A stretch of DNA of 61,583 bases, the filler included. It is 7 parts of 7 records of this genome, joined end to end, with 100 filler letters (N's around TTAATTAATTAA, not from the genome) between each part and the next. Parts side by side here need not be neighbours in the genome. Positions count along the whole stretch, not along the records: positions 10,557 to 17,347 come from SRR31156797_7037; 6 more parts are not named here. One strand, written 5' to 3'. The notes under the pieces were generated by a model, which saw only the letters and a program-made list of their open reading frames with translations, was not told where the DNA came from and ran no database searches. The translations under genes and the position numbers were made by a program. Positions 2,663 through 23,043 of the stretch are shown one piece after another; position 1 is the first letter of the stretch; each line of letters begins with the position of its first letter.

Positions 2663-5080
2663 TTAATAATGTAATATTTTTTCTCGATTGGTCGGTAAAA
2701 TTATTTTTTTATTTGAAAATTCTATCTCAACCTCTTTAGAAATTGTACTATTTATTTTAATTATTAATTGATTGTGTGATAAATCAATAGAATAATTATT
2801 CTTTTTGTACCAAAAATTAAATTTTAATGAATTCCAGTTTTTTGGCAGCGAGGGATTTATTTTAAGATGTTCTGTTTTTAGGTTAATTCCGGCAAATGTA
2901 GTAATTGCCATTAAAACAGTTCCGCCCATAACTCCCGTGTGTATTCCTTCGGCCGTTGTTCCGCCCTGAATATCAGTAAAGTCGCTTTGAAGCGCTTCGA
3001 AATACAAATTGTTCCCTTCTTCTTTATTTCCAAAAACATTGGCTAAATATGCATGTACAACACGACTCAATGTAGAACCATGCGATGTGCGGGCCAAATA
3101 ATACTCGTAATTCTTTTTAATATAATCAGTTGGAATTTTTTGTCCTGAATTTTCCAGTATTTTAGATATATCTTCTTTGTCGATATTGTAAAAAGTCATC
3201 AAAGTATCAGCCTGTTTGGCCAATTTGTAGTCATCCGGCGATTTACCTTCGGCTTTTAAAATTCTGTCGAGCCGGTAGATATTTTTATATTTTTTGCGAT
3301 AGGCATCCCAGTCCAGTTCTTTTAATTCAAAATAACCATCAAATTGTTCTATTATTCCTTCTTCTGAAACCGGGATATTTAACTTTTCAGCAATGGTTTG
3401 CCAGTTAACCACTTCTTCTTTTGTAAGGTTAATTTTTGAAGTTATTTTCTTTCGGTTATCTTCTGAAAGTTTATTAAGAATTTCAAAAGCTTTTGTAAAA
3501 AGCCATGCCACCATTATATTGGTGTATGCATTATCTTTTAAACCGCCACCCGGGCTTTTTTTGTGTTTTTCATGAAACTCATCGGGTCCCATAACTTTTG
3601 AAATATTATATTCTCCGGTAGTTTCATTCTTTTTCGATTTACTGGCCCAAAACCTGCAAATTTCCAGAAACATTTCTGCACCGCTTTCTTGCATAAAATC
3701 AATGTCGTTGGTAACCTGAAAATAATACCAGGTATTGTATGCAATTGCGATTGAAATATGACGTTGCAACGAACTGTAATCATCTCCCCATTTGCCCGAA
3801 ATTGGATTCAAATGAACAACCTGAGTTTCTTCGCGGCCATCGCTTCCGCTTTGCCATGGGAACATTGCTCCTTTGTAACCATATTCTTTTGCATATTCAC
3901 GGGCTTTTTCAATTCGCCGAAAACGGTAGTTTAATATCGTTTTGGCCACTTCCGGATAAAACAAAAAGTAAACCGGCATAATGTATAGCTCATCCCAGAA
4001 AATATGGCCCCGATACGCTTCTCCATGTAATCCGCGGGCAGCTATTCCTGCATCTATGTTTTTATTGTGTGGCGAAGCCGCAACCATTAAATGGTATAAA
4101 TGCAGTCGAATAAGCATTTGTGATTTTGGGTCGCCATTAATTTGTATATCAATGTTATCCCAAATTTTTTTCCATGCATTTTTACTTTCTTCCAAAATCG
4201 AATTGAATGTGCCAACATCAGATATTTCGATTTTACATTTCTCAAGAGGATTGTTTACGTCGTCTTCTTTTGAAGTAAAAACAGAAACTAATTTTTCTAC
4301 ATTTACTTCTTCATTTTTTAACAACCGGGTTTTAAAATGAAATGAAATTTTACCCGATTCTGCTTTATTATTGGCTGAAACATTTACAGGCTTTCCATCT
4401 TTTAATACCGAATGTTTGGTTGCCTGCGCTATTTCAATTTCCGACTGAACAGTTTTAACAGCTAACCATGCAACTTCATCTGCTGCTCCCTGTTCAATTG
4501 TTTTTAAATGCTTTTGATTGAGATCGCGGTAACGGGCAACACCATCGTTTATAATGTTACCATCAATTTCCGATTTAATTTCTACCTCACCTGAATAATT
4601 AAGTGGAGTAATTTTATATTGCAATGCTGCTAAATGATGATTTGTCATACTTGCAAACCTTGAACTGGAAATTTTGGTCTGTCTTCCTTTTTTATCTTCA
4701 ATAACCATTGTTTTGGAAAGACAACCGTTGGAAAAATTTAAACTGCGCTCTATTGAAACAATTTTTGTTTTATTAATATCAAACCAATCTTCGTCATCTG
4801 TTTTAAAATTGATATACAACCAATTTGGAATATTTACAAAATCTTCATTTTCAATATTCTTTTCTGCTACCTTAGAAACGAGTCGGTTGTACAGTCCGGC
4901 TATGTATGTTCCCGGATAATTGGTATCTGAAGCCAATGTTTCTTCCATTGCCCCACGAGTTCCAAAATAGCCATTTCCAACAGTAAGTAGTGATTCTCGT
5001 GATTTTTCTTTATTTGGGTCATAACCTGAATATTCCAATGACCATGGATTGTATTTTTCTTTTTTGGATTTTTCCAACAT
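2663..5080 (-). CDS. Glycoside hydrolase family 65 (trehalose/maltose/kojibiose-type phosphorylase or hydrolase)
   Basis: GNGYFGTRG N-terminus, ARGLHGEAYRGHIFWDE, GPDEFHE and KQAD motifs. Confidence 0.92.
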   Translation of the reverse strand: MLEKSKKEKYNPWSLEYSGYDPNKEKSRESLLTVGNGYFGTRGAMEETLASDTNYPGTYIAGLYNRLVSKVAEKNIENEDFVNIPNWLYINFKTDDEDWFDINKTKIVSIERSLNFSNGCLSKTMVIEDKKGRQTKISSSRFASMTNHHLAALQYKITPLNYSGEVEIKSEIDGNIINDGVARYRDLNQKHLKTIEQGAADEVAWLAVKTVQSEIEIAQATKHSVLKDGKPVNVSANNKAESGKISFHFKTRLLKNEEVNVEKLVSVFTSKEDDVNNPLEKCKIEISDVGTFNSILEESKNAWKKIWDNIDIQINGDPKSQMLIRLHLYHLMVAASPHNKNIDAGIAARGLHGEAYRGHIFWDELYIMPVYFLFYPEVAKTILNYRFRRIEKAREYAKEYGYKGAMFPWQSGSDGREETQVVHLNPISGKWGDDYSSLQRHISIAIAYNTWYYFQVTNDIDFMQESGAEMFLEICRFWASKSKKNETTGEYNISKVMGPDEFHEKHKKSPGGGLKDNAYTNIMVAWLFTKAFEILNKLSEDNRKKITSKINLTKEEVVNWQTIAEKLNIPVSEEGIIEQFDGYFELKELDWDAYRKKYKNIYRLDRILKAEGKSPDDYKLAKQADTLMTFYNIDKEDISKILENSGQKIPTDYIKKNYEYYLARTSHGSTLSRVVHAYLANVFGNKEEGNNLYFEALQSDFTDIQGGTTAEGIHTGVMGGTVLMAITTFAGINLKTEHLKINPSLPKNWNSLKFNFWYKKNNYSIDLSHNQLIIKINSTISKEVEIEFSNKKIILPTNREKILHY

Positions 5081-5097
5081 AATTTATTTGGGATTTA

Positions 5098-5868
5098 CTA
5101 ATTGAATTTTGCAAATATTTTATTTAATCCTTCAATTCCACCAATTTCTTCCAAATCTTCAACAACAATATGTGCCCCGGCTTCCTGTAATTCTTTTACA
5201 TTATTTTCGCGGGCAATTCCAATGGTTAGTCCAAATTTTCCTTTAATTCCTGCCTGAACACCTGAAACGGCATCTTCTATCACAATAGATTTTGAATAAT
5301 CTGCTTTTACAATATCGCAGGCAGTAGTGAAAATGTCTGGTTCTGGTTTTCCATGTAATCCCAATTCTGCCGAAACAACACCATCGACCCTGGCTTCGAA
5401 AATATTCAGTAAATCTACCCTTTCTAAAACCGGTTTGCAGTTTTTACTCGACGATGCGACACCTAACTTTATTCCGGCTTCTTTTAGTTCATTTAGTAAG
5501 GCAACTGTTGATGGATAAACTTCAACTCCTTCCTGGTTCAAAACTTCGTTAAATGCATCGTTTTTTCTATTTCCAAGTCCACAAACGGTTTCTTTAGTTG
5601 CTTCATCGGAAGGATCTCCAAATGGAATATTAATTCCTCTCGATTCTAAAAACGACTGAACACCTTTATAACGGGGTTTTCCGTCAACAAACGGAAGATA
5701 GTCTCCGGCATGTGTGAATTCTATGAATTTTTCACCATATTCAGCTTCGCGTTTTTTTAAGTACTTATCAAACATTTTTTTCCATGCTGCAGCATGCGTT
5801 AAAGCTGTTTTGGTAATAACACCGTCCATGTCGAAAATTACTGCATTAAAAGTAAGGTTATTGCTCAT
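5098..5868 (-). CDS. HAD-superfamily beta-phosphoglucomutase-like hydrolase
   Basis: FDMDGVIT motif I, SSS motif II, GKPEPDIF and IEDAVSG; adjacent to GH65. Confidence 0.88.
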   Translation of the reverse strand: MSNNLTFNAVIFDMDGVITKTALTHAAAWKKMFDKYLKKREAEYGEKFIEFTHAGDYLPFVDGKPRYKGVQSFLESRGINIPFGDPSDEATKETVCGLGNRKNDAFNEVLNQEGVEVYPSTVALLNELKEAGIKLGVASSSKNCKPVLERVDLLNIFEARVDGVVSAELGLHGKPEPDIFTTACDIVKADYSKSIVIEDAVSGVQAGIKGKFGLTIGIARENNVKELQEAGAHIVVEDLEEIGGIEGLNKIFAKFN

Positions 5869-6057
5869 TTCTATAAGTTTTTATTGTTACAACAAACATC
5901 TGCTGTAACTGTTTACCTTGCTATTTTATATAACAAAATATTTGGTGGTTTCCAAATAATGTTTATAATGTATGCGGAATATTGATAAAGATTATCTCTT
6001 TTGAAAAATTTATATTACGCTTATATAATTTTCAAATAAAACACATAATATTAAGGT

Positions 6058-8274
6058 ATGAAACGATTATTCATGATTTCTAACAGATTGCCATTACATG
6101 TTAATAATGATAAGGGCGAAAATGAATTGATCCCGTTTACCGATGGTTTTGATTCAGGATTAAAAAATTTTTATAAATCGTTTGATATTAAATGGATTGG
6201 CCGGGCAGGAATAAACATTGACGAAATAAGTGAAATTGAAAAACAAGAAATAGATAATAAATTCAGGCTGGAAAATTGTATCCCCATTTATATAGAACAG
6301 CAGTTAAGAAATGAATTTATTGAAGGATTTTGTGACAATACCATCTGGCCGGTATTTAATTATTTTACGCAAACATCGAAGTTTAATCCAAAACAATGGG
6401 TAGCCTATAAAAAAGTAAATCAACTGTATGCCGATACCATTTCGAAATACATTAATGAAGATGATATTATATGGGTGCACGATTATCATCTGATGTTGTT
6501 GCCTAAAATGATTCGCGAAAAATTTCCAAATATTTCAATCGGTTATTTTCAACACATTCCATTTCCTTCGTTCGAAATTTTCAGGCTTTTACCCTGGCGA
6601 ATGGAATTGCTTGAGGGAATTCTGGATGCCGACTTAATAGGATTTCATACCTATGATTACCAGCGACATTTTATGAGTTGTGTGAGACGATTGCTGGGGC
6701 ACGAAACTTTTTTTAATCGAATCAGGCTCGACGAGCGGATTGTAAAAGTCGATGCTTTTCCGAAAGGAATTGATTTCGATTTCTTTAATAATACTGCAAA
6801 AGAAATTGCTGAAAATAGTAAAAGTGAAGATTCTGAAATTCGAAAAGAATTAAAAGAATTTTTGAGAAAAGATAAAGACAGAAAAATAATATTGTCAATC
6901 GACCGCCTGGATTATACAAAGGGAATTCCTGACAGAATTAAGGCCTTTGAGCTATTCCTGAAAAAGTATCCGGAATATATTGAGAAAGTAAGCCTTTTCT
7001 TATTTGTTAAACCATCTCGTGAAAATGTAACCGATTATCAGGATTTGAAAAAACAAATGGATGAACTCGTTGGAAGAATTAACGGAATGTATGGTTCAAT
7101 TGGCTGGATGCCCATATGGTATTTTTATCGATCGATGGACAGAATGGAATCGGTGGAGTTATATAGTAGTGCCGATATTGCATTGATAACACCAACCAGA
7201 GATGGAATGAATTTGCCGTCAAAAGAGTATATAGCCAGTAGAGTCGATAAAACCGGGGTGCTAATTTTAAGCGAAATGGCTGGAGCAGCAAAAGAATTGG
7301 GTGAATCTATAATTGTAAATCCAAACAGCCGGACTGAGGTTGCAGATGCAATTTATCAGGCTTTAAATATGAGTAAAACAGAGCAAATTAAACGAAACTC
7401 AATACTTCAAAAAAGACTAAGTATTTACGATGAAGAACGTTGGGCTAACGATTTTATTCATGGTTTAGAGGGCGTTAAAAAAATGCAGGAATCGAGTTAC
7501 ACACGTAAAGTAACTGTAAAGGTTATTAACAAACTTGTGGAGAAATACAGAAACAGTAAAAAACGAATTGTTTTTCTCGATTATGACGGAACATTAACCG
7601 GTTTTCATAACGATCCGCAAAAGGCAATGCCCGACGAGGAATTATACACCATAATGGAAAAACTAACCACAAATAAAAAAAACACAGTGGTTGTAATTAG
7701 CGGTCGCGATAAGGAAACACTTTCGAAATGGTTTAAACAATATTATAATAACCTGGCTTTTATTGCTGAACACGGAGTTTGGAATAAAAACCCCGGAACG
7801 GAGTGGAGTATGACCAGTCAAATAGAAAAAGAATGGATGGAAATTATTGAACCGGTTTTGCAAAATTTTGTTGACCGCACACCCCGATCATTTATCGAAT
7901 ATAAAAATTATTCGTTGGTTTGGCATTACAGGCATGCAGACCCTGATATGGGACAGCAACGTGCCTGGGAGTTAAAAGATGATCTGAAAAATTATATTGC
8001 CAACCTTAATCTTGAAATAATGGATGGCGATATGGTTATAGAAATAAAAAATGCCGGAATAAATAAAGGAATGGCAGCCCTAAATAAAATAGGGAAAAAT
8101 GATTTTGATTTTATTTTGGCGATTGGTGACGACTGGACCGATGAATATACATTTAATTCTATTCCCGATTCGGCACATACAATAAAAGTGGGAACCAAGT
8201 CAACTGCTGCTAAATATTATATAAACGACGTAAAAAGTGTACGCGGGTTTTTAAAGCAACTGGAGGAAGATTAG
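6058..8274 (+). CDS. Bifunctional trehalose-6-phosphate synthase/phosphatase (GT20 + HAD)
   Basis: SNRLP, WVHDYHLML, HIPFP, DRLDYTKGI and RDGMNL in the GT20 half; FLDYDGTL and GDDWTDE in the phosphatase half. Confidence 0.95.
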   Translation: MKRLFMISNRLPLHVNNDKGENELIPFTDGFDSGLKNFYKSFDIKWIGRAGINIDEISEIEKQEIDNKFRLENCIPIYIEQQLRNEFIEGFCDNTIWPVFNYFTQTSKFNPKQWVAYKKVNQLYADTISKYINEDDIIWVHDYHLMLLPKMIREKFPNISIGYFQHIPFPSFEIFRLLPWRMELLEGILDADLIGFHTYDYQRHFMSCVRRLLGHETFFNRIRLDERIVKVDAFPKGIDFDFFNNTAKEIAENSKSEDSEIRKELKEFLRKDKDRKIILSIDRLDYTKGIPDRIKAFELFLKKYPEYIEKVSLFLFVKPSRENVTDYQDLKKQMDELVGRINGMYGSIGWMPIWYFYRSMDRMESVELYSSADIALITPTRDGMNLPSKEYIASRVDKTGVLILSEMAGAAKELGESIIVNPNSRTEVADAIYQALNMSKTEQIKRNSILQKRLSIYDEERWANDFIHGLEGVKKMQESSYTRKVTVKVINKLVEKYRNSKKRIVFLDYDGTLTGFHNDPQKAMPDEELYTIMEKLTTNKKNTVVVISGRDKETLSKWFKQYYNNLAFIAEHGVWNKNPGTEWSMTSQIEKEWMEIIEPVLQNFVDRTPRSFIEYKNYSLVWHYRHADPDMGQQRAWELKDDLKNYIANLNLEIMDGDMVIEIKNAGINKGMAALNKIGKNDFDFILAIGDDWTDEYTFNSIPDSAHTIKVGTKSTAAKYYINDVKSVRGFLKQLEED

Positions 8275-10556: not shown

Positions 10557-11369
10557 GATTGCTTCTTCCGGGCAAGTTTCAATACATTCGCCGCAATTGG
10601 TACATGATGATCTTTCAATGTAGGAATCTTCAATACTTGAATCTCCCGATTTTTCAATGGCATCGTAAGAACAGGCATCATAACATTCACCGCATTGGGT
10701 GCAGTCGTCCTGATCAATTTCTACGTAAGCCTTAGTTATGGCATTGTGACCACAACGACTATAACATTTACCACATTTACTGCATTTTGAAGTGTCGATA
10801 TATGCTTTACCACTTACTTTTGAAATTGCATTATCGGAGCAAACGCTGGAGCATTTGCTAACACAACCATGGCAGTTGCTTTTAACGGAATAATTCTCAA
10901 CAACGTATTCTATCGCATTGCCTTCGTTCTTGCATTGTGTAATACAGTCGCCGCAACCCACGCAATCCGACTTAATGGAATAAGAGCCTGATGCAATTTT
11001 TAGGGCATCGTAATCACACGACGAAACACAATCGTTACAGCCGGTACAAGCGCTAGAGTTTATGTTGTAACTCTTTTCGGGCATAACAATAGCATCATCA
11101 TCGCATACGCTAACGCACCAGCTGCACATACTGCAATCGCTCACTGAAATGGAGTAGCTCGAAACACCATCTGTAATTATTGCGTTGTAATTACAAACAT
11201 CCTCGCAATCTCCACAGCCTATGCAACTGGCTTCATCAATTGTAAGTGTTTCGTATAAACTTTCGGTGCACGAACTGATAACCGGGCTAAGTAAAATGCT
11301 ACCGCCAAAGGCTTTTAGTCCGGTTTTTAGAAAAGCCCTGCGTTCATTCCTGGTTTTTTTTTCCTTCAT
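10557..11369 (-). CDS. Tat-signal lipoprotein polyferredoxin, at least 8 [4Fe-4S] motifs (3' truncated)
   Basis: ERRAFLK twin-arginine motif and ISSC lipobox-like sequence; seven CxxCxxCxxxC motifs and one CxxCxxxCxxxC motif. Confidence 0.85.
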
Positions 11370-11378
11370 CTGTTCTGT

Positions 11379-12716
11379 TTAAAAATAAAATCGTGCCTCC
11401 AGGCGACCCAGATATGCTTTTTCTTCCAGCTCGCCACCACTAATAATACCACCTTTAAATTTAAGGTGTAATTTGTCTCTTAATTGTTTTCCTATTTCAA
11501 TATCCCATTCATTTAAATTGCCATTGTTTAATTGTCCCGCATTTTGGAATTTAAAGCTCATTTTAGCCGAAGGGATACTGTATTTCAAGCCAAGGAGGTA
11601 TATCGGTAAATTCACTGCATCAAGGCGCAATACTTCTCCTGCCAAAATATTGCTGTAGGAGTTTAGCACCGTCGCATTCTTATCAATTTCGGTGAAAGCA
11701 TAATAGGCGGCATTTAATGCCAGACGGTTTCCGCTTTTTAAGCGAAATCTTTTTTCCATTTCTGCAAGATAAATAAGTCCTTTGTTGCTTTCTTCGTATT
11801 GATAAAGCACTTCAGGATTGAAGTAAATCTCTCCCGGTAATTTTAAGGAAACGAAAAGGCCTGTATGGAAAAAGGTATTGGAAATCCAGTCGCCAAATTC
11901 GGAATAAGCAACTATGCCTATATTTTCCAGGGCAAAGCCCATTGTTGAACTTTTTGTAGCTGATGATCCGGTTTTCAGGACCAAAAAATCGTCGGATTCG
12001 GGACTTTCAAATTTTTCATTGTTCGAAGCTTCAAATTCATCACTATCAAAAGACTCAAACTCATCATCTGCCGAAGGTGTGTCTGACTTTTTGGACTTTA
12101 AACTTTTCCCGGGGAAAAATGAAAGAGTAAAAGCTGCCAGATTTTTATCGCCAAGATTATTTCCTAAAACAGCCTGATCCTGACCAGTTTGTAAGTCATA
12201 AATAAAACCTGTGGTACAAAAAATGCCATTACGGGCAAAGTCTTTGGTAACCGAACCAGCATAAGCATTAAATTTCCATTTCCCGTAATCGATTTTCCAG
12301 TTTAATCCGGCAACTCTTTCATTCAAAAGGTAATGATCATCAAGTGCTGAACTTTGTAGCCCCAGGGTAATACTGTTTATCTCTCCCCGGTATTGGTAAA
12401 ACAATTCGCGCATACCAAAGCGGTATTGATCAAAAAGTAGTTCTTCCTCAAAATCGTATTTCCACCAGGCCTTTATGCCTCCTTCAAAATAGAGCGAATG
12501 TTTTTGAGTGCTGTAGTCGATTCCAATGAATCCCATGGCAGTATTTATCGAATTGCCATCAAGTATTCCGGTACTTATTTGTGTTTCTGCTCCTAAAAGC
12601 ACCGGGCTGTTGGCAATTGGATCAAGGTGAGCAGCCAAATGGCTGGGACATTCCCACTGCGCATGAACATTTAATATTAGGGCTAAGAAAGTTAAAGCAA
12701 GAAAGTATCGTTTCAT
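11379..12716 (-). CDS. Putative outer-membrane beta-barrel protein
   Basis: Sec signal peptide, alternating hydrophobic beta-strand pattern and terminal RLEARFYF (aromatic C-terminal beta-signal). Confidence 0.65.
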   Translation of the reverse strand: MKRYFLALTFLALILNVHAQWECPSHLAAHLDPIANSPVLLGAETQISTGILDGNSINTAMGFIGIDYSTQKHSLYFEGGIKAWWKYDFEEELLFDQYRFGMRELFYQYRGEINSITLGLQSSALDDHYLLNERVAGLNWKIDYGKWKFNAYAGSVTKDFARNGIFCTTGFIYDLQTGQDQAVLGNNLGDKNLAAFTLSFFPGKSLKSKKSDTPSADDEFESFDSDEFEASNNEKFESPESDDFLVLKTGSSATKSSTMGFALENIGIVAYSEFGDWISNTFFHTGLFVSLKLPGEIYFNPEVLYQYEESNKGLIYLAEMEKRFRLKSGNRLALNAAYYAFTEIDKNATVLNSYSNILAGEVLRLDAVNLPIYLLGLKYSIPSAKMSFKFQNAGQLNNGNLNEWDIEIGKQLRDKLHLKFKGGIISGGELEEKAYLGRLEARFYF

Positions 12717-14071
12717 TTTTTTGTTATTCCAGTTATTTCAATCGATTTAAATTTGCACTTGTCCATACAGTCTCCACAAAGAATACAGTCCTCATTGTTT
12801 AACCGGCAGTTTCTGTTTTCGTAGGTCATGGCATTGTATTTACATGATGAGCTACAACTTTTACAATCAACACATGTTTCATTTTTATTGAGTCTGGCTG
12901 CGCCCGGAATATGTGAAACCCATCCTAAAATTAATCCGACCGGGCAAAAAGCACGGCAAAATGGCCGGTAGATTAATAGGGAAGAAATCAGTAGTATGGC
13001 CAACAATACATAACCAAGTGTGTTGGCAGAGAACAGGTTATAAGCCACTTTAAATGGATCGTAATGAATAAAAATATTTGTACGCGTTACCACAATCTGC
13101 ACCAGTAAAATTGCAAGTGTAACTACTCTGAACCATTTTAAGATTAGCTGCGATTTTCTGTTTTGTAAAACCTTAATCATCCCAGGACGGAAAATAAATT
13201 CTTGTAAAGCTCCCAAATGACAAACCCAGCCACACCAAACTTTACCGAAGAAATAAGTAAGAGGTATTAATCCTAAAAACCAAAGCATTAAAACGGGTTC
13301 TACCTTTGTACCGATTAAATACATTACTGTATTTTGAAAACTGGAGATCATACATGGACAGGCACCGTTTATAAAACCCAAATAGATTATCGTTCCCAAC
13401 AACATAAAGGTTTTGAGTTTACGAGTTCTTTTAAACCGTACCAGTATGCCAGCCAGCAGCGTTAATAAAAGCACCAAAACTGATAAAGTGAAATTACGAT
13501 TGCTCCAGATTGATTGGTTTGTTTCTTCAGCTATTTCGGTTGTTTCATCTGAAAAACCAGAGAATTCATCATCTGGTAGTTCCTGGAATTCATCTGTTTC
13601 CGAAAACGTTTCAAACTCATTATTATCTGTTGTTTCTTCCAATGGTTCGAACACATCTTCTTCTGTTTCGGGAAAATTCGCTTGCGCTAAAAGTATTTTT
13701 TCTTTGGAATTAATTTGGTTGGTGCAGGTTTGTTTTTTAGGAATAAAACCTAAAGCCACTAAAGCTACCATTAATGCAGCAACTTTCCAGCTGAGTTTCC
13801 GGGTAACATAAACGGCACCTCCGGCCACAGCTAAAAGTATTAGACTAAATTTTAACCAGGGAGGGGCAGCAGTTCCTGCTCCGGTTTCACAACTTTGGGC
13901 GGTAGGGCAAGTGGCACATACCCGGTGTTTGTTAGGTTGGTAATCGTCGGTAAATTCCTCAAAAACATCCGTTTCCTGACCCTGTAAATTGTTAGTGGCT
14001 CCAAACGAAGTCAAAATAGTTACCAGTAAAATAAGGCCAAAACGGGCGATATCTAGTTTCTTCAAATTCAT
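12713..14071 (-). CDS. NapH/MauN/YccM-like membrane 4Fe-4S protein
   Basis: Multiple TM helices; ACPC, WCGWVCHLG and FCRAFCPVG motifs; two C-terminal CxxCxxCxxxC motifs. Confidence 0.85.
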   Translation of the reverse strand: MNLKKLDIARFGLILLVTILTSFGATNNLQGQETDVFEEFTDDYQPNKHRVCATCPTAQSCETGAGTAAPPWLKFSLILLAVAGGAVYVTRKLSWKVAALMVALVALGFIPKKQTCTNQINSKEKILLAQANFPETEEDVFEPLEETTDNNEFETFSETDEFQELPDDEFSGFSDETTEIAEETNQSIWSNRNFTLSVLVLLLTLLAGILVRFKRTRKLKTFMLLGTIIYLGFINGACPCMISSFQNTVMYLIGTKVEPVLMLWFLGLIPLTYFFGKVWCGWVCHLGALQEFIFRPGMIKVLQNRKSQLILKWFRVVTLAILLVQIVVTRTNIFIHYDPFKVAYNLFSANTLGYVLLAILLISSLLIYRPFCRAFCPVGLILGWVSHIPGAARLNKNETCVDCKSCSSSCKYNAMTYENRNCRLNNEDCILCGDCMDKCKFKSIEITGITKK

Positions 14072-14458
14072 TTAAACGGTGGTGGCTCTTGTGAGTTTTA
14101 TTTTACCATATCCTCCTTCTTTGTCGCATGTGCGAATAGCCTCAAGAATCATTTCTTTCGAATCTCCCTTTAATACTTTTAGTTTTAGTTTACGTTCAAA
14201 TTTTCCTTTGGCATATTCCTTCCACTTTGTGGCACCTAAAACTTTAATTCCTTCGTATTTAAACTTTGTATTTTCAATGCCTTCAGGACAAACACGGTGA
14301 GTGAAAACCACATTTACTTTTACAATGATCTCATCTCCTTCCTTAAAACTTTCTTTTTTCTCATCACCCATTACCGTAAAATCAATTTCGCAGGCTTTTA
14401 TTTGCTGTCCGGTAAAAAGGACAACCAGCAGAAATAAAGTTGTTATTACATGTTTCAT
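14072..14458 (-). CDS. Secreted small three-Cys protein (paralog A)
   Basis: Signal peptide ending at IKA-C; motifs CEIDF, HRVCPEG and RTCDKEGG; beta-rich. Confidence 0.75.
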   Translation of the reverse strand: MKHVITTLFLLVVLFTGQQIKACEIDFTVMGDEKKESFKEGDEIIVKVNVVFTHRVCPEGIENTKFKYEGIKVLGATKWKEYAKGKFERKLKLKVLKGDSKEMILEAIRTCDKEGGYGKIKLTRATTV

Positions 14459-14461
14459 ATT

Positions 14462-15460
14462 TTAGATTTTAATGATTTCTAATAGTTGGCTCATGATGAA
14501 TATTGCTACCATAATAAACAGCGAGAGATGTATGGTTAATTTCTTACCCAGGTATTTTAGCAACATCATAAACGACGAAACACAAATGGCTGTTGAGGTT
14601 AACGAGAATGCAATGGAAGTGCCAAGTGATAAACCACCATACTGTACCAATGGTTGTAGAAATAGTATATCGGCTCCATTACAAAAATAAATGGGCATTC
14701 CAACTAATATAAATGCTGTTGCACTTAATGGCCCTTCTTTTAATTGTAACTTTTCTAAAAGTTCGGTTGGTTGGAATATCTCGAAAGTGAGACTGATTAC
14801 TCCTGCAATCAGAAGATAGGGAATTAACTTTTTAAATATCAGAAAGGTTTCGGTGTAAACACTTTTGCCTTGAACAGTACACGTTGTTTGGCTTGAGCAG
14901 CTCAATAATTTCTCTGGGTCGGGAATGTTGATTTTTGGCGCCACCCATTCGGCAAAGTAACCAGCGCCAACTGCCAGAATTAATGATGAAATAATTCTGA
15001 TAAAAGCATATTCGTTTCCCAAAACTGTAAACGATAGTGCAACGATGTATGGATTTAACAAGGGGGCTGCTACAACAAAGGTTATTATGGTTCGTAAACG
15101 CAATTGCCCTTGCATTGCTCCCATCATTGGGATAGCAGAGCAGGAACATACCGGAATTACGGAAGCGTATAAAAAGGCTGAAAACTGGTTTCGTGGATAT
15201 AGACGTTTATATTTTATAAAGTGTTTCTGTAATAAAGTCCCAATAAAAATCCCAATTAAAACAGTCATAAAAAGATCGACTGTAAACTCGTACATTAAAA
15301 AAAGCCAACGAGGTAGGGTGGTAAATAGAATACATTTCTCGCGGGTATGGTATGTAATGCCATAATAAGTTTTATAAACAAAATCGACCAACAATATCGT
15401 CAGTACGAAATATATTATCAGCACATAAATAAAATCCTTATTTGTAACTCTGTTTTCCAA
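14462..15460 (-). CDS. DUF318/ArsP-like permease
   Basis: Polytopic membrane protein with PVCSCSAIP, AAPLLNP and PIYFCNG motifs and a central loop containing CSSQTTC. Confidence 0.82.
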   Translation of the reverse strand: MENRVTNKDFIYVLIIYFVLTILLVDFVYKTYYGITYHTREKCILFTTLPRWLFLMYEFTVDLFMTVLIGIFIGTLLQKHFIKYKRLYPRNQFSAFLYASVIPVCSCSAIPMMGAMQGQLRLRTIITFVVAAPLLNPYIVALSFTVLGNEYAFIRIISSLILAVGAGYFAEWVAPKINIPDPEKLLSCSSQTTCTVQGKSVYTETFLIFKKLIPYLLIAGVISLTFEIFQPTELLEKLQLKEGPLSATAFILVGMPIYFCNGADILFLQPLVQYGGLSLGTSIAFSLTSTAICVSSFMMLLKYLGKKLTIHLSLFIMVAIFIMSQLLEIIKI

Positions 15461-15470
15461 ATTATTCGTT

Positions 15471-15854
15471 CTATGGCCCGGTTTTAAAACTTTTTTGCTG
15501 AAAACAATTGTAATGAGCAGTTTTTCTGTAAGCCGTTAAAGTTTTATCTCCCTTTTTTTTGAGTACAGTTAATACCAGCCTTTGCCCTAAAGTATTTTTC
15601 GAAAATTTTTTCCATTCAGAGCGTTCTACAATTTTTAATCCTTTGCTAAATACTTTGGTAACATTACCGGCTTCATCGCAAAAATCATCATCGAGCCTAA
15701 CTTTTACCAAAACTGTAATTGTATCGTTTATACTATATGTTATTTTTTCATTTTGCACAACAATATCAATTTGGCAACCTTTGTCGGATGCCATGCTAAA
15801 TGTTGCAAACAGGCTTAAAATAAGACCAAATAAACTACGAAGTATTTGTTGCAT
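15471..15854 (-). CDS. Secreted small three-Cys protein (paralog B)
   Basis: Signal peptide; CQIDI, DFCDEAG and late Cys; TKxxxxGxKxxxxxxWK shared with 14072-14458. Confidence 0.72.
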   Translation of the reverse strand: MQQILRSLFGLILSLFATFSMASDKGCQIDIVVQNEKITYSINDTITVLVKVRLDDDFCDEAGNVTKVFSKGLKIVERSEWKKFSKNTLGQRLVLTVLKKKGDKTLTAYRKTAHYNCFQQKSFKTGP

Positions 15855-16030
15855 AACGAATATTCATTTTATATCCTTCCTGTTGCTCGTGCAAATCACC
15901 GGTGAGGTTAATTGCCTTCATCGCATTTTTATTACATAAGGATAAACTGAAAGTTGGACACGCAAAGTATTTAAAACTTGTGGAAAAAGCTGAAGACGGG
16001 TGAATTTAGAATTGGAATAAATAAAAAATG

Positions 16031-16810
16031 TTAGCCTGAAATGCTTTTTATAAACTGAATGCTGTGTTGGTTAAAGGCATCGGGTTGGTCGATATTGCAA
16101 ACATGTCCGCTGTTTTTAATCACCTCAAGTTTCGAGTTAAAATGCTTTTGAACCAGGTTCGAAACCATGGGTAAAAACATATGGTCGCGGTCGCCCATTA
16201 AATACAATACCGGGGCTGAAGCTTCTTTGATAAGAAACTCCTGGAGATTGTCTTTTATCTCGGTTGACATGCAGAGCCATTTTTTAAATTCGCGCTCGCC
16301 CAAACGAATAGCTTCTTTAATAAAGAGTTTTCTCGATTCTATATCTTTTTTGTATGGGATTAGTATCCAGGCATTTATCCTGTAAAGCCACATGTATGGG
16401 AAAATGGATTGTAGCAATTTTGCTACCGAAACCAGAGCCCTTATGCGCGAATTGAATTGTACAACCGCACCACCCAGAATAATTGATTCGGCTCTGCCTG
16501 GGGCAAGCTTGTCCATTGCGCGGATAATAATACATCCTAATGAAATGCCAACAAGGTGAGCCTTTTTTATTTGTAAATGGTCCATTGTGCGGATTACGTC
16601 CAGGGCAATTTCGTCAAACTGATAAATTTCTTCTTTGGTGTACTCTTTTTTCGATTTTCCGTGTCCACGGAGATCAACCAAAAGGACATTGAAATATTTT
16701 TTGAATTCTCGCAGTTGCCTAAACCATACGATATTACTTCCCCCGGCGCCGTGCACAAACACAACCCAGGTTTTTGATGTTTTATGTGAAAATACCTTGT
16801 GGTAAAGCAT
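16031..16810 (-). CDS. Alpha/beta hydrolase
   Basis: FVHGAGG, DLRGHG, GISLG nucleophile elbow and SGHVCN. Confidence 0.88.
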   Translation of the reverse strand: MLYHKVFSHKTSKTWVVFVHGAGGSNIVWFRQLREFKKYFNVLLVDLRGHGKSKKEYTKEEIYQFDEIALDVIRTMDHLQIKKAHLVGISLGCIIIRAMDKLAPGRAESIILGGAVVQFNSRIRALVSVAKLLQSIFPYMWLYRINAWILIPYKKDIESRKLFIKEAIRLGEREFKKWLCMSTEIKDNLQEFLIKEASAPVLYLMGDRDHMFLPMVSNLVQKHFNSKLEVIKNSGHVCNIDQPDAFNQHSIQFIKSISG

Positions 16811-16875
16811 GGCTCAAAAGTAAAATTATTTCAAGATAACAACAAACATCTTTTAATGTTGCGTGATTGAATTTT

Positions 16876-17347
16876 TTAATCTGTTTTTTTTGCCAGTTTG
16901 TATTCGGGCACTTCTTTTAATTCCTCATGTGTTTCGGTTAGTAATTCTTTTAAAGGAATGTGTTTTGGCACCTTGGTTAAGTCAACCTTGTTTATGTTTT
17001 CTTTGGTGGGTAGTTCGCCAGGAAACCAATGACTTTTTTGCGTAAAAACCTTATATCGATATTTGGCATAGTCTTTCATGTCGTAGCATTTCCAGAGCCG
17101 TCGCAATCGCAGTATCTCAGGGATATTAATTCCCGAAGGATCGTGTAGGATATCGAAACCTTCGTAATTACCATACAGATCATCATTTATAAAGCCATCC
17201 AGTTTTAGTTTTATATTATAATCTTCTGCACTCCAGGGGATTTGTGTTGGGAATATCCCTTTCATTTCTTTAAAATGCTTGGGTTCGGTAATCCCAAACG
17301 ACAAAGTATGTATTGCAGGATTGTTTAAACAAAAACGGGAATTCCAC
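16876..17347 (-). CDS. Aldo/keto reductase, C-terminal part (5' truncated)
   Basis: Frame is open from the gap (RFCLNNPAIHTLSFG); C-terminal GINIPEILRL...YAKYRY...HWFPG tail seen in AKRs carrying an Fe-S-type extension. Confidence 0.65.
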
Positions 17348-17447
17348 NNNNNNNNNNNNNNNNNNNNNNNNNNNNNNNNNNNNNNNNNNNNTTAATTAAT
17401 TAANNNNNNNNNNNNNNNNNNNNNNNNNNNNNNNNNNNNNNNNNNNN
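17348..17447. other. Artificial contig spacer
   Basis: Same linker; GC content jumps on the right side. Confidence 0.97.
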
Positions 17448-17586
17448 AATGGGAAATTGTGCCCCGTCGACAAGGGATCATGCAAGAACCGATAACAACT
17501 CAATGGAGACCAAATTCACCACTTGTTTCAGCGCCCCGGGTTCCGATACTTAATGAAAGCCGACAGCCAATGAATGAGGTAGAAAA

Positions 17587-18573
17587 ATGGCGGGTCCGAC
17601 CGGTAGCAGCAAAAATGACCCTCGCGGGATGATGGATCCGCAGATGGCCGCGGCCATGGACAGGATGGCCGAAATCGCCTCCGAACTCGGCGACATGCCG
17701 GAGGAACCATCCTACGAACAGATCCGCGCCCGCATGTTGAGCGAAAAAAGCTTCTGGAATGAAGACCCGCTGCCACTGGCGGCAATCGAGAATATTTCGA
17801 TCCCGGGACCGGGCCGCGATGTGCCGGTGCGGATTTATCGATCAAGCACCGATGCCAGCCTACCGGCAATCGTGCACTTTCACGGCGGCGGTTGGGTCAA
17901 GGGCAGCCCCGATTCGCATGATCGGGTCGGCCGGGCACTGGCCCGGGAAAGCGGCAGCGTCGTTTTTTCGGTGGATTACGTTCTGTCGCCGGAATACCCC
18001 TTCCCGGAACCGCTCAAGGATTGCATCGCGGCGGTCTTGGCCATCGCCGATAATGCCGACGACCTCGGCATCGATACCGGATGTTTGGCGCTTTCCGGCG
18101 ATTCGGCGGGCGCCAACCTGGCCATGGCGACGGCCCAGCATTTCAAAGAGGATCGCCCCGGCCTGATCAAGGCCCTGTTGCTTTTCTACGGCGTTTTCGG
18201 GCTGGATCTGAACACCGAGTCCTACCTGACATTCGGCGGCGGCGAATTCGGCTTGTCGCGGGACGAAATGGCGGACTACTGGGACGCCTACTTGAAAGAC
18301 CGGAACGATCGCGAAGATCCGAAAGCGGTCCCGATGAGGGCGGACCTGACCGATCTGCCGCCGGCACATCTATGTGCGGCCGGGCTTGACGTTCTGCGCG
18401 ACGATACGCTCAATCTTGCACGTCGCCTCGAGGACGCTGGGATTCCCATCGAGTTGAAGGTTTACGACGGCGTCTGCCACGGGTTCATCGGGCTCGGACG
18501 CATGGTCGATGCCAGCAACGCTGCCATCGCCAATGCCGCCGCTTTTGCCGAGCGGATTTATCGGAATTCCTGA
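17587..18573 (+). CDS. HSL-family (family IV) esterase/lipase
   Basis: HFHGGGW, GDSAG, DVLRDD and HGF motifs. Confidence 0.92.
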   Translation: MAGPTGSSKNDPRGMMDPQMAAAMDRMAEIASELGDMPEEPSYEQIRARMLSEKSFWNEDPLPLAAIENISIPGPGRDVPVRIYRSSTDASLPAIVHFHGGGWVKGSPDSHDRVGRALARESGSVVFSVDYVLSPEYPFPEPLKDCIAAVLAIADNADDLGIDTGCLALSGDSAGANLAMATAQHFKEDRPGLIKALLLFYGVFGLDLNTESYLTFGGGEFGLSRDEMADYWDAYLKDRNDREDPKAVPMRADLTDLPPAHLCAAGLDVLRDDTLNLARRLEDAGIPIELKVYDGVCHGFIGLGRMVDASNAAIANAAAFAERIYRNS

Positions 18574-18617
18574 GGAACTTCAAACATTCGACCGTCTCGT
18601 CTGGCCCGCTTGCACAA

Positions 18618-19214
18618 TCAGGACTTGATCGCCCCGCATCCGCGAAGCTTGGAACCGGGCAGTCTGGCGGAAACGCCTTCTTGAACGGGTCTTGTTCCCG
18701 GGAACAACAAAACGCGTTTGACCGACGAATTGCGAAGCACCTCGTTGACCGGGTCCAGAAGATTTTTCTCGGCCGATTCGATATCCAAGTGGCGGTCGCG
18801 ATCCAACCGGATAGGATGTTGATACAGTTCGGTAACAACCGCATCCTGGATTCGCGGTGACATACTGCAAACGGCACTCGCCGACTTGGTCGCCACTTCC
18901 AAAACCAGGGTCATCGGACGCGACTTGCGGTGGCGGCTTCCCGGTCGGACCGTCGGCGCCATGAAGGATTGCATCTGAACATGGGTCCAGGCGGGCAGCG
19001 GCGACGGTGGCGGAGTTTCTGACGGTTCTTCGGCAACCGCGGAATAGCTGGTCGGAAGAACCGAAATGGCTACGGTGAAAAGGAATAAAGCCGACAGACG
19101 TGGAAATGCTCTTAACAAAGGAGGCGTCCTCAGACTGGCGTTATCTCCTCCTTCCTCTTTCCCATTACCGAAGATAGTACCGCTTGGCCAGCCGCGCAAT
19201 GGCGGATTTTTCAT
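18618..19214 (-). CDS. FliL-like exported protein (start uncertain)
   Basis: Hydrophobic N-terminal segment, Pro-rich linker, then MTLVLEV...PRIQDAV...VNEVL...VKRVLL, resembling the FliL periplasmic domain. The ORF-track start at 19349 overlaps the upstream gene. Confidence 0.5.
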   Translation of the reverse strand: MKNPPLRGWPSGTIFGNGKEEGGDNASLRTPPLLRAFPRLSALFLFTVAISVLPTSYSAVAEEPSETPPPSPLPAWTHVQMQSFMAPTVRPGSRHRKSRPMTLVLEVATKSASAVCSMSPRIQDAVVTELYQHPIRLDRDRHLDIESAEKNLLDPVNEVLRNSSVKRVLLFPGTRPVQEGVSARLPGSKLRGCGAIKS

Positions 19215-19275
19215 CGCATGTCCGTGCCGGCATATCCGGCACGGACGGCAAAAAAATCTCAGCGCAGATACGAAC

Positions 19276-19983
19276 TCAGTGAATATCGTCCTGCTTTTCG
19301 AAGGCCTGACGCAGATCCGCCACCGAAAAACCGGGTTGACGGGCGGCATTGATGACGACCGCTTCCTTGCGGGCGATCATCGCCGCGCAATCCGGAATGT
19401 CCCGAGCGATTTCCGGCGGAATAACAACGGCACCGTGCCGATCGGCATGGATTAAATCCCAGGAAGACACATTCATGCCGGAAACCGTCACATCGGCGCC
19501 GAAAGCGACAACATGCACGAAAGCATGGGACGGCTTGATGGTGGCCGAAATGAACTGGAAGCCCTCGGCACAATCGGGAATGTCGCGCACGCAGCCGTCG
19601 GTAATGGTGCCAAGCGATCCAAGACCTTTATGCACATTGGACTGCACCTCGCCCCAGAACGACCCGTATCCCTTGATGGGATCCAGATCCTGAATGACGA
19701 TAATCGATGGTCTCGGCCCGTCTTCAACATATTCATAGTAACCGATGCGCGTTGCCTGCACGTCTTCGGCCGGTCCCTGCGGCGGATCCATGGCGCGGAT
19801 GGTGGCGGTTCGAGCATAGCCAACCATGGGCGGCAGATCCGGGTATGAACAGATCAAAGGCTCAACCGTATACCCGAAACCGCGCCGGGCCGGCATCAGT
19901 ACCTCGATGGCATTACAGACGGTCGGCGTGTCGAGCGCACGCAGGGCGGCAAGGTCCGCTTCGCTTAAGGGCTGGGTCGTCAT
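19276..19983 (-). CDS. RraA/HMG-CHA aldolase family protein
   Basis: DTPTVCNA, GYARTATI, FWGEV, TDGCVRD and HADRHGAVVIP motifs. Confidence 0.88.
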   Translation of the reverse strand: MTTQPLSEADLAALRALDTPTVCNAIEVLMPARRGFGYTVEPLICSYPDLPPMVGYARTATIRAMDPPQGPAEDVQATRIGYYEYVEDGPRPSIIVIQDLDPIKGYGSFWGEVQSNVHKGLGSLGTITDGCVRDIPDCAEGFQFISATIKPSHAFVHVVAFGADVTVSGMNVSSWDLIHADRHGAVVIPPEIARDIPDCAAMIARKEAVVINAARQPGFSVADLRQAFEKQDDIH

Positions 19984-20164
19984 CTTTGGAGCCTCCTCTG
20001 TTTCGGTTCACCGTTTTGTTTCTTCCGGGGGATCACACTGTCATAGGGCTCATCTTTCCGGCGTGCAACCGGATGCGTCAAGCCCCTGTTTTTTCCGGCA
20101 TTGATGGCAGCCTGCGGTCGAAGAACACCGCTGGCGAGATCGTCGACGTCGGCAATCGGACCGG

Positions 20165-20755
20165 TTATTCGCTGTCGAGTGATTTACCGGCAGCGCACCG
20201 CCAACAGTGGTCGAACAGGAACTCCCATTCAGCCACCTGGATACGGCACCAAAGCGGGTCGTCCGGCTTGCCGTTATGGACCGCGATTTCACAGAGATCG
20301 ACGAAACTGGATGGATTCCATGTCTTTTGTGCGGCAATCGCCCGAGCCGCCGGACCGTCGCCGCTACCGGCGATTTCCGAGACCGCCTTTTGAAGTGGGC
20401 CATATACCGGATGGCTGCCGACCCGCCGGAACCAGTATTTCGAGTTCCAGAAGTCTCCTTCCCGACGATGCATGAGACCGTGCCAGTAGCTTCCCTCGGC
20501 ACTTTCGACGCGCTGGCTTATGCGATGAGATTCATCCAGAAACCCGAATCGCAGCCAAAGCGCCGACAGGCACGCCACCGCCATATCGAGGTCGTCCACA
20601 TCGCCGTCCGGGAACAGTTCGGTAGCGGACAGGCGACCCAGGGCCTCTCCGGCAATGACATCCCGGTGCCCCGCATCCAACGGCATGACGCCCCTGCCGC
20701 CTTTCAACAGTTCGGCGACAACGGGTCCATAAGTTGTCGAATCGAATTCGTGCAT
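20165..20755 (-). CDS. Conserved hypothetical protein
   Basis: Protein-like ORF with LDESHRISQ...YWHGLMHRREGDFWNSKYWFRRVG...EWEFLFDHC; consistent codon bias. Confidence 0.75.
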   Translation of the reverse strand: MHEFDSTTYGPVVAELLKGGRGVMPLDAGHRDVIAGEALGRLSATELFPDGDVDDLDMAVACLSALWLRFGFLDESHRISQRVESAEGSYWHGLMHRREGDFWNSKYWFRRVGSHPVYGPLQKAVSEIAGSGDGPAARAIAAQKTWNPSSFVDLCEIAVHNGKPDDPLWCRIQVAEWEFLFDHCWRCAAGKSLDSE

Positions 20756-21069
20756 GGCGGTTCCAAATATAAAAAGAAAACCGTTCTACACGATAGGACT
20801 TCGATATTTCATCCGGAAAAAACAAGGCCGACAACAATCGCTTTCGCAGCCCAATTTGGCAATTAAGTTTATCTATAGTTGTTCGATGTATGGCTTTATC
20901 TAATATAAATATAAAAAAACAAAAAAAATCGGTGTGAATTAACGGAATTTAACGGAAACACTGCATTTCTGATAGTATCAGCCGGCACAGGGTGGGGAAT
21001 CCCAGCAGTTTCTGCCGGGGATATCCTCGGGGTTTTTGAGTTTATAATTCCGGTGGGAGTGTCCTTGGC

Positions 21070-23043
21070 GTGGCCGCAGCGACACTGGATCAGATCGACG
21101 TCATGATGGTCGACCCGGACCGCAATTCGCAGTCCGTGGTCAAAACCATATTGTCGAGCCATGGTTTTCAGAACCTGCACTTTGGCAGGTCGCTGGATGA
21201 TGCGCGCAAACACGTAACCGACGCCCTTCCGGATCTTTTGATCTGCGAGTCCGACCTTCCCGACGGCGATTTTTGCGATTTCGTCTATCGCGTCCGGCAC
21301 CACGAAGTCGGCACCAATCCATTCGTCGCCATCATAGCTCTTACCCAGACGCCAAGCCCCGACACCGTCAGACGGGTCAGCGAATGCGGCGTCGACCATC
21401 TGGTTGTGAAACCGTTCTCGACCGGCCAGATGATCGACCGGATCAGATTGTTGATCGATTCGCGCAAGCTTTACATCGTGACCAGCGACTATATCGGTCC
21501 CGACCGGCGCAGTCGCCACGAAAGGGGGAATTCGGCAACCCCGATGGCCGTTCCCAACACCTTGAAAGCCAAGGCGATGGGTCAGGCGGATTCGGATGCC
21601 ATCCAGCGCGCTATCGATCTGACCGTCTCCGAGATCAACATTAAAAAACTCGAGCGTTACGACGACGAGATCGGTTTCCTGGTGGCACGTGTCTTGCCTC
21701 ACCTGAAAAGCGGAAATATCGATGAAACCGCTTCGCGATATCTCGATCGTCTGCTTTACGTGGCAGGAGATACCGCCCGGCGACTGGTCGGCACGAAGTA
21801 CGCCCATGTTTCGGAGCTGTGCGAAGCCTTGCTGACCGTCACCAATGCAGTGTCGTCAACCCGCAGCAATTTGGACAAAAGGGATATCCAACTGTTGGAG
21901 CCTCTTTCAAAGGCCATTCAGGTTGGTTTCGGCACAAGCGAGGCAACCATCGCTGCCGCCAGAGAGATTTCGACGCAGGCGTTGGCGCATTTCCGCGACA
22001 TCCAAGCCAAGATGGGACGTCCCACGGAACCTGCACAGTTCATACCCCGCCCCCCCGAGAGGCACCAAACCACAGCGCCGAGCGAACCGGCCAAGAAGGA
22101 ACAGAAGGCCACGGACGCTCCCGCCGAACCCGCGACGCCGGTCAAGAAACCGGATGTTGGCGCCGTACCGGCGGATCGGCCGGTTGCCAACGCCCGCGCC
22201 ATCCCTGCGAGGGAAGCGCCCGCATCAACCGTGCCGGCCACCGAACTGGGCTTAGGATTTAACGAATTGTTCGTCGAATGCCTGTGCAAGTTCATCCGCA
22301 GACGGCTGACGCCCTGGCATATTGAACCTGTTGGCCGCGATCCCTTGCCGTTTATCCTGTCGCCTGCATTTGGCGACTGCTTCGTCGCAGCCATCCGTAA
22401 ATATGTCGTCAATGCCATCCCTTTGAACCGCCGGCTTGTGGTTTTGTCGCAAAGCGTCAACAAAGGCGAGATCAGCGAAGCGTATTTCGCCAAGATGTTG
22501 GACGCGCCGAACCGCAACGAAAACGTCGGCCGGTTTTTATGGATGAACTGGTGGGATGATGTTGAGAAGGCATTGGCACCCGATACGCCGGCCTCCGTAA
22601 ACAAGCAGATTGCCATCGACGCGCCCCTTCTTTGGAAATCCCTCGAACACGGTGCCGCCAAGGGGAACTATGATCCGCCACGGGTCAAGGATATCGTCCT
22701 GTTCAAGGCGCTGTTCGATTTCGATTTGGAATCCATTCGAGCGGTAACGACGGGAGTCCAGCAGGTTCTACAACACGAAGCAACGGGCGAGGCGGGTGAC
22801 GGGGCATCACGGAATTATCTATTGAATCAGATCGAAAGCCAGGTCATTCATCTGGGTGAAGTCGCCGCCATCTGGGCCTATTTCACAAACGCCCAATTCA
22901 CGCCGGAAATTCAGAAATCCTTTGTTGCCAGCACCGGACGGACAGCGCGTGAGCGCCGCCAGGAATTGCCATTCTATCTTCGCTGGGCACCGGACCTGAC
23001 GCGCCGGCAGATGGGAAACGGAAGCACACAAAAACCGGGGTAG
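21070..23043 (+). CDS. Atypical response regulator: Cle-like receiver plus long C-terminal domains
   Basis: N-terminal receiver (VDPD, PDLLICE, ALT, VKPF), YIGPDRR motif, Pro/Ala linker and an unrecognised helical C-terminal domain. Confidence 0.8.
   Translation: MAAATLDQIDVMMVDPDRNSQSVVKTILSSHGFQNLHFGRSLDDARKHVTDALPDLLICESDLPDGDFCDFVYRVRHHEVGTNPFVAIIALTQTPSPDTVRRVSECGVDHLVVKPFSTGQMIDRIRLLIDSRKLYIVTSDYIGPDRRSRHERGNSATPMAVPNTLKAKAMGQADSDAIQRAIDLTVSEINIKKLERYDDEIGFLVARVLPHLKSGNIDETASRYLDRLLYVAGDTARRLVGTKYAHVSELCEALLTVTNAVSSTRSNLDKRDIQLLEPLSKAIQVGFGTSEATIAAAREISTQALAHFRDIQAKMGRPTEPAQFIPRPPERHQTTAPSEPAKKEQKATDAPAEPATPVKKPDVGAVPADRPVANARAIPAREAPASTVPATELGLGFNELFVECLCKFIRRRLTPWHIEPVGRDPLPFILSPAFGDCFVAAIRKYVVNAIPLNRRLVVLSQSVNKGEISEAYFAKMLDAPNRNENVGRFLWMNWWDDVEKALAPDTPASVNKQIAIDAPLLWKSLEHGAAKGNYDPPRVKDIVLFKALFDFDLESIRAVTTGVQQVLQHEATGEAGDGASRNYLLNQIESQVIHLGEVAAIWAYFTNAQFTPEIQKSFVASTGRTARERRQELPFYLRWAPDLTRRQMGNGSTQKPG

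Follow-up and report, generated by a model that had tools for sequence, protein, structure and literature searches.

A conserved gene module of Bacteroidota that joins a NapH-like protein and an exported polyferredoxin to an outer-membrane barrel

Porin-cytochrome conduits such as MtrAB and Pcc are built around an outer-membrane barrel of about 26 strands, and in the FtrABCD system the component FtrD is a membrane polyferredoxin. NapH, which has its clusters on the cytoplasmic side, is paired with a ferredoxin-type protein exported by the twin-arginine translocation (Tat) pathway, as described in the accessible parts of two papers (PMC5449189, PMC8238504). The Geobacter ExtHIJKL cluster is linked, in the accessible part of its source, to reducing selenite and tellurite but not Fe(III) (PMC5877670). 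Here, we analyze an operon of six minus-strand genes (10557-15854) in a stretch of DNA of 61,583 nucleotides (nt), filler included (the window), which combines a NapH-like iron-sulfur (Fe-S) protein and a Tat-type polyferredoxin with an outer-membrane barrel, a DUF318 permease and two small exported proteins, called A and B below. An earlier note on this DNA, made from the sequence alone, had not recognized it as a described system, and a literature search, in which subscription papers were mostly out of reach, likewise returned no description of the gene set; none of five Fe-S terms occurs in PMC12133095, and the search brought up no exported polyferredoxin of 8-12 clusters linked to an outer-membrane channel of its own. 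We regard the module as undescribed and as a variant of NapH-type envelope electron transfer with two core proteins of unnamed families.

The module resembles NapGH, NosR, and PceC in joining a membrane Fe-S protein of family PF12801 to a Tat-exported ferredoxin-type partner, and its PF12801 protein shares with NapGH the CxxxCP-type motifs and two C-terminal 4Fe-4S clusters. It differs from NapGH in that the exported partner is lipid-anchored and carries 8-12 clusters, compared to the four of NapG, in that no nap, nos, or mau catalytic gene is linked to it among the scanned neighbors, and in that a dedicated barrel and a Cys/His sandwich protein belong to its core. Unlike the flavinylated NapH-like systems, its six proteins contain no FMN_bind match, and the only FMN-binding proteins among the scanned neighbors are two DUF2271 cargo proteins and the NqrC encoded in an NQR operon next to the module. 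As in MtrAB and Pcc, an exported wire with multiple redox centers is encoded beside an outer-membrane barrel, but the module lacks heme and an outer-surface cytochrome, its barrel has 18 instead of about 26 strands, and the wire is, by calculation, too big for the lumen. [quoted passage not shown] The likeness to FtrABCD lies in the small periplasmic beta-proteins, the permease and the membrane Fe-S protein of one operon (accessible part of PMC11966278); in contrast, the permease of the module is of the DUF318 and not the FTR1 type, its small proteins match no P19 or cupredoxin family, and Ftr has neither a barrel nor an exported polyferredoxin.

The window consists of seven contigs joined by N44-12nt-N44 spacers, and the contig of the operon spans 10557-17347. 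Because this contig ends at 10557, the polyferredoxin gene is cut and nothing to the left of this position is a genomic neighbor. A public contig that may itself be the source of this DNA covers the region and extends 736 nt beyond 10557. From its start, the operon encodes protein A of 127 amino acids (aa; 15471-15854), the DUF318/ArsP_1 permease (332 aa; 14462-15460), protein B, an Ig-like beta-sandwich of 128 aa (14072-14458), the NapH-like inner-membrane protein (452 aa; 12713-14071), the barrel, which belongs to an unnamed family (445 aa; 11379-12716), and the polyferredoxin, a Tat-type lipoprotein of which 271 aa are present in an open reading frame (ORF) without its end (10557-11369). 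The arrangement given earlier, with co-oriented genes separated by 10 nt or less or overlapping, was recovered with the same ORFs and consecutive gaps of 10, 3, 0, -4, and 9 nt, and the six translations are indeed free of CxxCH. The closest barrels (61-68% identity) belong to Draconibacterium records, and the host is probably a close relative within the Prolixibacteraceae.

The module is real and conserved. Our sample comprised 43 loci, 33 from a genome scan and ten more, of which 11 had flanks that were too short; in the 32 that were counted, the four-gene core of protein B, NapH-like protein, barrel and polyferredoxin is found together in 27 and the complete set of six genes in 19, so that the co-conservation named beforehand as a test was observed. 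These loci are mutually related, and all conservation counts and p values given here are naive in the sense that kinship is ignored. Protein A and the permease form an accessory pair (19/32 loci), which the closest relatives have upstream of the core and the others downstream of it. Two loci (L024 and L027) hold only the NapH-like and barrel genes, and both of these genomes encode protein B and the polyferredoxin elsewhere; the barrel of L065, which lacks its two Cys, stands alone without partners. Among 201 genomes of the family, the barrel and protein B are each present in 13 and shared by 12 (p 3e-17), and the polyferredoxin (E 1e-50) is present in 11, all of which are barrel-positive (p 2e-16). 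With hits in 2 of 401 genomes of a phylum sample, the barrel is rare and patchy. Its family extends to a KSB1 record, and protein B is still encoded immediately upstream of one very distant barrel; when eight distant barrels were used to scan metagenomes, a single short locus resulted, so contexts outside the Bacteroidota are barely sampled. Cultured carriers from the genome scan are Draconibacterium aestuarii Z1-6, Draconibacterium sp. IB214405, Saccharicrinis sp. 156, and Carboxylicivirga caseinilyticus A049. Signs of decay were seen as well: protein B is split in L037 (12067-12315) and has an in-frame stop in L062 (10693-11060), and L109 (10366-11891), counted among these signs, has protein B and the NapH-like protein without barrel and polyferredoxin.

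The polyferredoxin bears out the exported protein predicted earlier, with many Fer4 repeats (Pfam), eight cluster motifs in the part present, and a twin-Arg and a lipobox that can be read from the sequence. Its closest full-length relatives are 337-340 aa long with 41 Cys and ten motifs; over 27 full-length proteins the motif count is 10 in 19, 12 in seven, and 8 in one, and CxxCH is absent from the full-length proteins. The twin-Arg lipoprotein signal is found in these relatives, in divergent form in three, while acidic residues after the lipid Cys, which are a surface-export signal, are inconsistent among the polyferredoxins. One irregular motif lies in the middle of the relatives, and the number of motifs before it equals the number after its partner in 27/27 proteins and in 23 of 29 further homologs; pairwise alignments show one indel per half. 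Such symmetric gain and loss is expected of a nested hairpin in which the irregular motif forms the tip and both termini sit by the lipid anchor, and suggests that the protein is a linear wire that grows or shrinks by single two-cluster domains. In two loci, an extra two-cluster Tat-lipoprotein ferredoxin of 85-88 aa is encoded between barrel and polyferredoxin (L007, 5761-6018; L019, 11273-11539).

The identification of a NapH/MauN-type membrane Fe-S protein stands on matches to PF12801 (Fer4_5, E 1.4e-14) and Fer4, though the protein scores far below the NapH cut-offs (TIGR02163, 67 bits vs. 213; NF007013, 51 vs. 234) and also far below that for NosR. Hydropathy and alignment predict eight transmembrane segments and an acidic periplasmic segment, with a CPC motif on the presumed periplasmic side and CxxxCH, CxxxCP, and two C-terminal 4Fe-4S motifs on the presumed cytoplasmic side; in most members, the first of these reads CxxxCH. 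Repeated [DE][DE]F motifs occur in the acidic segments of both this protein and the barrel, three in each here and in relatives up to 10 and 4, respectively, against a background of 0.36 per 450 aa; protein B, which is basic, might dock at these segments.

Proteins A and B are paralogs (30% identity, E 6e-12), and neither scores above the cut-off of any Pfam or NCBIfam family. The earlier note had described two small secreted three-Cys proteins; both do have three Cys in the window, but the trio is conserved only in the 128-aa protein B, in which C23, H54, and C57 are invariant and C111 nearly so (69 aligned sequences), while protein A outside the closest relatives keeps the middle Cys only. 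The AlphaFold 2 model of protein B (predicted local distance difference test score, pLDDT, 85) is an Ig-like sandwich that matches Ig-like folds (best Z 9.4) and has no functional match; judged from strand order, C23, H54, C57, and C111 should meet at one end of the sandwich. Protein A is encoded directly upstream of the permease in 19/19 loci with full flanks that have it. The permease was correctly assigned to DUF318 (PF03773, ArsP_1; 86 bits vs. a cut-off of 32, E 2.8e-24), and its CSC and YxCNGAD motifs are invariant in 12 sequences. The CSC motif is common to SO_0444 and SaoE (bioRxiv 2022.07.06.499078), but the permease of the module stays below the NCBIfam cut-offs for SaoE (49 vs. 325 bits) and SO_0444 (55 vs. 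300 bits). Selenocysteine is not indicated: the tblastn matches over 46 loci contain 12 stops, and in no case does a stop align with a Cys.

Folding of the region 11379-12716 as a barrel had also been named beforehand as a test, and the AlphaFold 2 model is an 18-strand barrel (pLDDT 86) with a disordered acidic stretch at residues 214-256. No Pfam or NCBIfam family covers it, and a PDB sequence search with the barrel profile gave no matches. The best fold matches are AlgE (E 4e-10; Z 25.0; root-mean-square deviation 3.3 Å over 312 residues), OprD/Occ channels such as OpdQ (Z 24.3), and the Campylobacter MOMP, at identities to the AlgE/OprD-fold matches of 8-13%, so that the likeness, an 18-strand barrel of the monomer type, is one of fold only. 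A standard barrel formula puts the empty lumen at about 21-22 Å, compared to 35-36 Å for 26 strands and about 25 Å for a single ferredoxin domain. By this estimate the wire cannot thread the barrel as in MtrAB, and the idea of an MtrAB layout rebuilt from Fe-S clusters is not supported. Two Cys, C23 at the mature N-terminus and C167 in the loop after strand 7, are both found in 183 of 202 relatives, several of the exceptions being proteins called without their start, and 152 of the 202 end in Phe. Three single ORFs, each from one assembly, fuse the NapH-like protein to the barrel (P0119, P0129, P0130) and keep the signal-like segment of the barrel in the middle; they may be real fusions or read-through artifacts.

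A motif GCAAG-N17-GTC(C/T)AA is common to eight aligned upstream regions, and its only match in the window, ACAAG-N17-GTCCAA at 15954-15981 on the minus strand, lies upstream of the operon; the pattern was partly derived from this very site. The strict motif precedes 11 of 33 operons vs. 0.03 expected, a comparison that is circular because the motif was read from these operons. Genome-wide searches with exact patterns gave 23 distinct sites in ten genomes (1-4 each), and the reversed pattern gave 0-2 per search. These sites precede genes for zinc-finger anti-sigma factors (8), DUF4405 proteins (5), the operon described here (4, one of them with a TTG start), extracytoplasmic function (ECF) sigma factors (2), and a DUF2202 protein, an LTXXQ protein, a lipoprotein cluster and no ORF (1 each), which places 21 of 23 before the operon or a sigma, anti-sigma, DUF4405, DUF2202, or LTXXQ gene. 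Autoregulated ECF promoters are usually recognized by a motif that precedes both the sigma factor and its anti-sigma factor. The site at 15954-15981 is probably an ECF-sigma promoter, and a sigma factor for metal or envelope stress seems to activate the operon. Scans for sigma-70 promoters and terminators stayed at chance level, and the operon contig has no Rfam match at E 1. A second upstream motif, GTAGG..., was seen by eye in the aligned upstream regions.

The gene set of this regulon consists of an ECF sigma factor, a zinc-finger anti-sigma factor, Spy/CpxP-like, DUF2202, and DUF4405 proteins. It directly heads module genes in L037, L063, L025, and L109; in the last, sigma is followed in turn by anti-sigma, sensor, Spy-like, DUF2202, protein B, and NapH-like, with the motif before sigma, anti-sigma and protein B. 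The regulon sigma factors are 35-77% identical to the reference sigma factor, compared to 22% for a FecI-like one, and the sigma gene is divergent in L037, L063, and L092. According to Pfam, L089, L092, L025, and L063 have the anti-sigma factor at position +1 and a heavy-metal resistance protein at +2 from the sigma factor. This is, by layout alone, the arrangement of ECF281 and CnrYXH, and ECF281 was linked to heavy-metal stress by its authors from gene context alone; Fe-S or barrel targets are not mentioned for ECF281 in the accessible part of that paper (PMC7826278). DUF4405 and DUF2202 occur in ferrosome iron-storage clusters, as far as the accessible part of the source describes them (bioRxiv 2020.01.10.902569). 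DUF2202 is present in 12/12 genomes with a Cys-bearing barrel and in 78 of the 201 family genomes overall. Among ten DUF2202 proteins that were aligned, a lipobox-like Cys is present in nine, and the positions E, ExxH, E/D, and SxxH, a pattern that is typical of di-iron bundles, are retained in every one. The regulon DUF2202 proteins (L089, 7374-8180, and nine relatives) are candidate exported di-iron ferritin-like lipoproteins. Behind a motif site in L105 (3265-11889, plus strand) lies a cluster of PqqD-like, ATP-grasp and pyridoxal-phosphate decarboxylase (FslC-like, below cut-off) genes with a urea transporter-M23 fusion, a tetratricopeptide-repeat protein and type IX secretion cargo genes, and L015 has a similar cluster immediately behind the polyferredoxin (12325-20950, plus strand); it is possible that this is a metallophore or peptide pathway in the same regulon.

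The genes next to the operon were scanned in the loci (122 + 60 neighbor proteins), and neither a recurring terminal reductase nor another recurring catalytic gene was found. A terminal reductase just downstream, raised in the earlier note as the mark of an ordinary NapGH-like accessory module, is not what follows the polyferredoxin, since the next gene is on the opposite strand in 7/7 closest loci. The absence of a hydrogenase, also claimed before, is correct for the contig of the operon but not for five of the seven closest loci, in which a convergent [FeFe]-hydrogenase cluster follows the operon (L001 by Pfam; L004, L005, L006, and L069 by shared clusters or ORF sizes). This hydrogenase, which we take to be of the cytoplasmic type, was set aside as a partner, being on the opposite strand and confined to the closest relatives. 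Other loci adjoin a Hyf/Ehr-like membrane complex, co-oriented with the NapH-like and barrel genes in L027 (1501-8736) and divergent in L024 (623-8546), or an NQR operon (L066-L068), each of them within a single small set of related loci. In L037, a CusA/CzcA pump is encoded after the operon, and SufS, rubrerythrin, and SufE flank L012 and L013.

Our tentative preference goes to a stress-induced redox unit of the envelope that acts on a small solute; a metal or metalloid ion that passes the channel is the likeliest candidate. An ECF sigma factor with its zinc-finger anti-sigma factor and a CpxP/ZraP-like sensor would turn the operon on. The NapH-like protein would shuttle electrons between the periplasm and either the cytoplasmic or the quinone side, and the lipid-anchored polyferredoxin, as a nested hairpin of 4-6 two-cluster domains, would carry them across the periplasm to a thiol site composed of protein B (Cys3His) and the two barrel Cys. 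There, the solute passing the narrow channel would change its redox state, and protein A and the DUF318 permease, where present, would transport the product through the inner membrane. Reduction is likelier than an FtrABCD-like oxidation coupled to uptake. This reading is supported by the co-conservation of the core and the joint occurrence of barrel, protein B and polyferredoxin in the 201 genomes, by the presence of protein B and polyferredoxin elsewhere in both genomes whose barrel locus lacks them, and by the solitary state of the only barrel without the two Cys. Further support comes from the solute-channel fold together with the motif sites before operon and sigma set, and from the ECF281-like layout, the ferrosome DUFs, the pump of L037 and the CSC motif of the permease. 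The earlier proposal of a metal(loid) reduction or detoxification module served by the permease gains support from the ECF regulon and the neighbors; the permease itself belongs to the accessory pair and not to the core.

Several observations weigh against a metal(loid) unit. The strict motif is absent upstream of 22/33 operons, and a related pattern found no site in four of five more distant genomes. The Metal_resist proteins of the regulon would be metal-binding by family name only, and Spy/CpxP proteins also serve general envelope stress. DUF2202, being so widespread in the family, mostly works without the module. At the proposed thiol site, C23 and C111 of protein B could form a structural disulfide, since loss of the first Cys in protein A goes with loss of the third, and the Cys pair of the barrel could be a structural disulfide as well. 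Finally, the permease is absent from 13/32 loci, and L022, L029, and L032 have no NapH-like gene at the locus.

The presence of Spy/CpxP-like and DUF2202 proteins in the regulon would also fit a chain for envelope repair or detoxification, in which the wire feeds DUF2202, acting as a peroxide or oxygen reductase, or oxidized thiols, and the channel admits the oxidant. The lipobox-like Cys and di-iron-type positions of DUF2202, its presence in every genome with a Cys-bearing barrel and the SufS, rubrerythrin, and SufE genes around L012 and L013 are in its favor. We nevertheless consider this explanation unlikely, though it deserves to be kept in mind: DUF2202 is found in 78 of 201 genomes vs. 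12 for the module, and peroxide needs neither a dedicated channel nor a metal-type permease. An ordinary NapGH-like feeder for an unlinked periplasmic terminal reductase, with the barrel admitting the substrate of that enzyme, appears to us rather improbable. NapH with a Tat-exported ferredoxin is the NapGH pattern (PMC5449189), and NapH-like proteins are modules that go with different oxidoreductases (PMC8238504), as the accessible parts of these papers have it, but no catalytic gene recurs among the neighbor proteins, no reductase is among the first ORFs after the 23 motif sites, and the NapH-like protein is distant from the NapH and NosR models.

Slightly less probable again, in our estimate, is a heme-free extracellular electron conduit, in which the polyferredoxin docks at the barrel or is displayed at the surface and a Cys-bound center passes electrons to minerals, electrodes or partner cells. 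An exported wire of 8-12 clusters that is always beside the barrel or co-inherited with it, a barrel that keeps one Cys at each of two distant positions, the three fused NapH-barrel ORFs, and the energy-converting complexes next to some loci (Hyf/Ehr-like, NQR) argue for such a conduit. The 18-strand lumen is narrower than one ferredoxin domain, however, and the fold is that of solute channels; moreover, no outer-surface partner recurs, the surface-export signal is inconsistent, and a small ECF regulon suits stress better than respiration. A complete cytochrome-free path through both membranes under ECF control, running from the NapH-like protein over a nested Fe-S wire tuned in two-cluster steps to a Cys/His metal center at or in the 18-strand channel and serving external acceptors or donors, seems to us similarly improbable.

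On the contig of the operon, the upstream region (16031-17304, minus strand) encodes an alpha/beta hydrolase, together with the truncated C-terminal portion of a gene resembling aldo/keto reductases, and the same neighbors are found in L001-L006. Another contig carries at 2663-8274 what we take, from the translations, to be a trehalose/maltose-like cluster (GH65-like, phosphoglucomutase-like, trehalose-phosphate synthase/phosphatase-like). The GC content is 58% in the piece 17448-26913 and 34-47% in the other pieces, a contrast which indicates that the window mixes organisms.

The module gives a context to DUF2202 and DUF4405, and the promoter with its sigma factor is a direct handle for finding the inducer in cultured carriers. 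If the preferred reading of a metal(loid) redox unit is true, fermentative sediment Bacteroidota would be able to convert metals or metalloids between redox states in their envelope without using heme.

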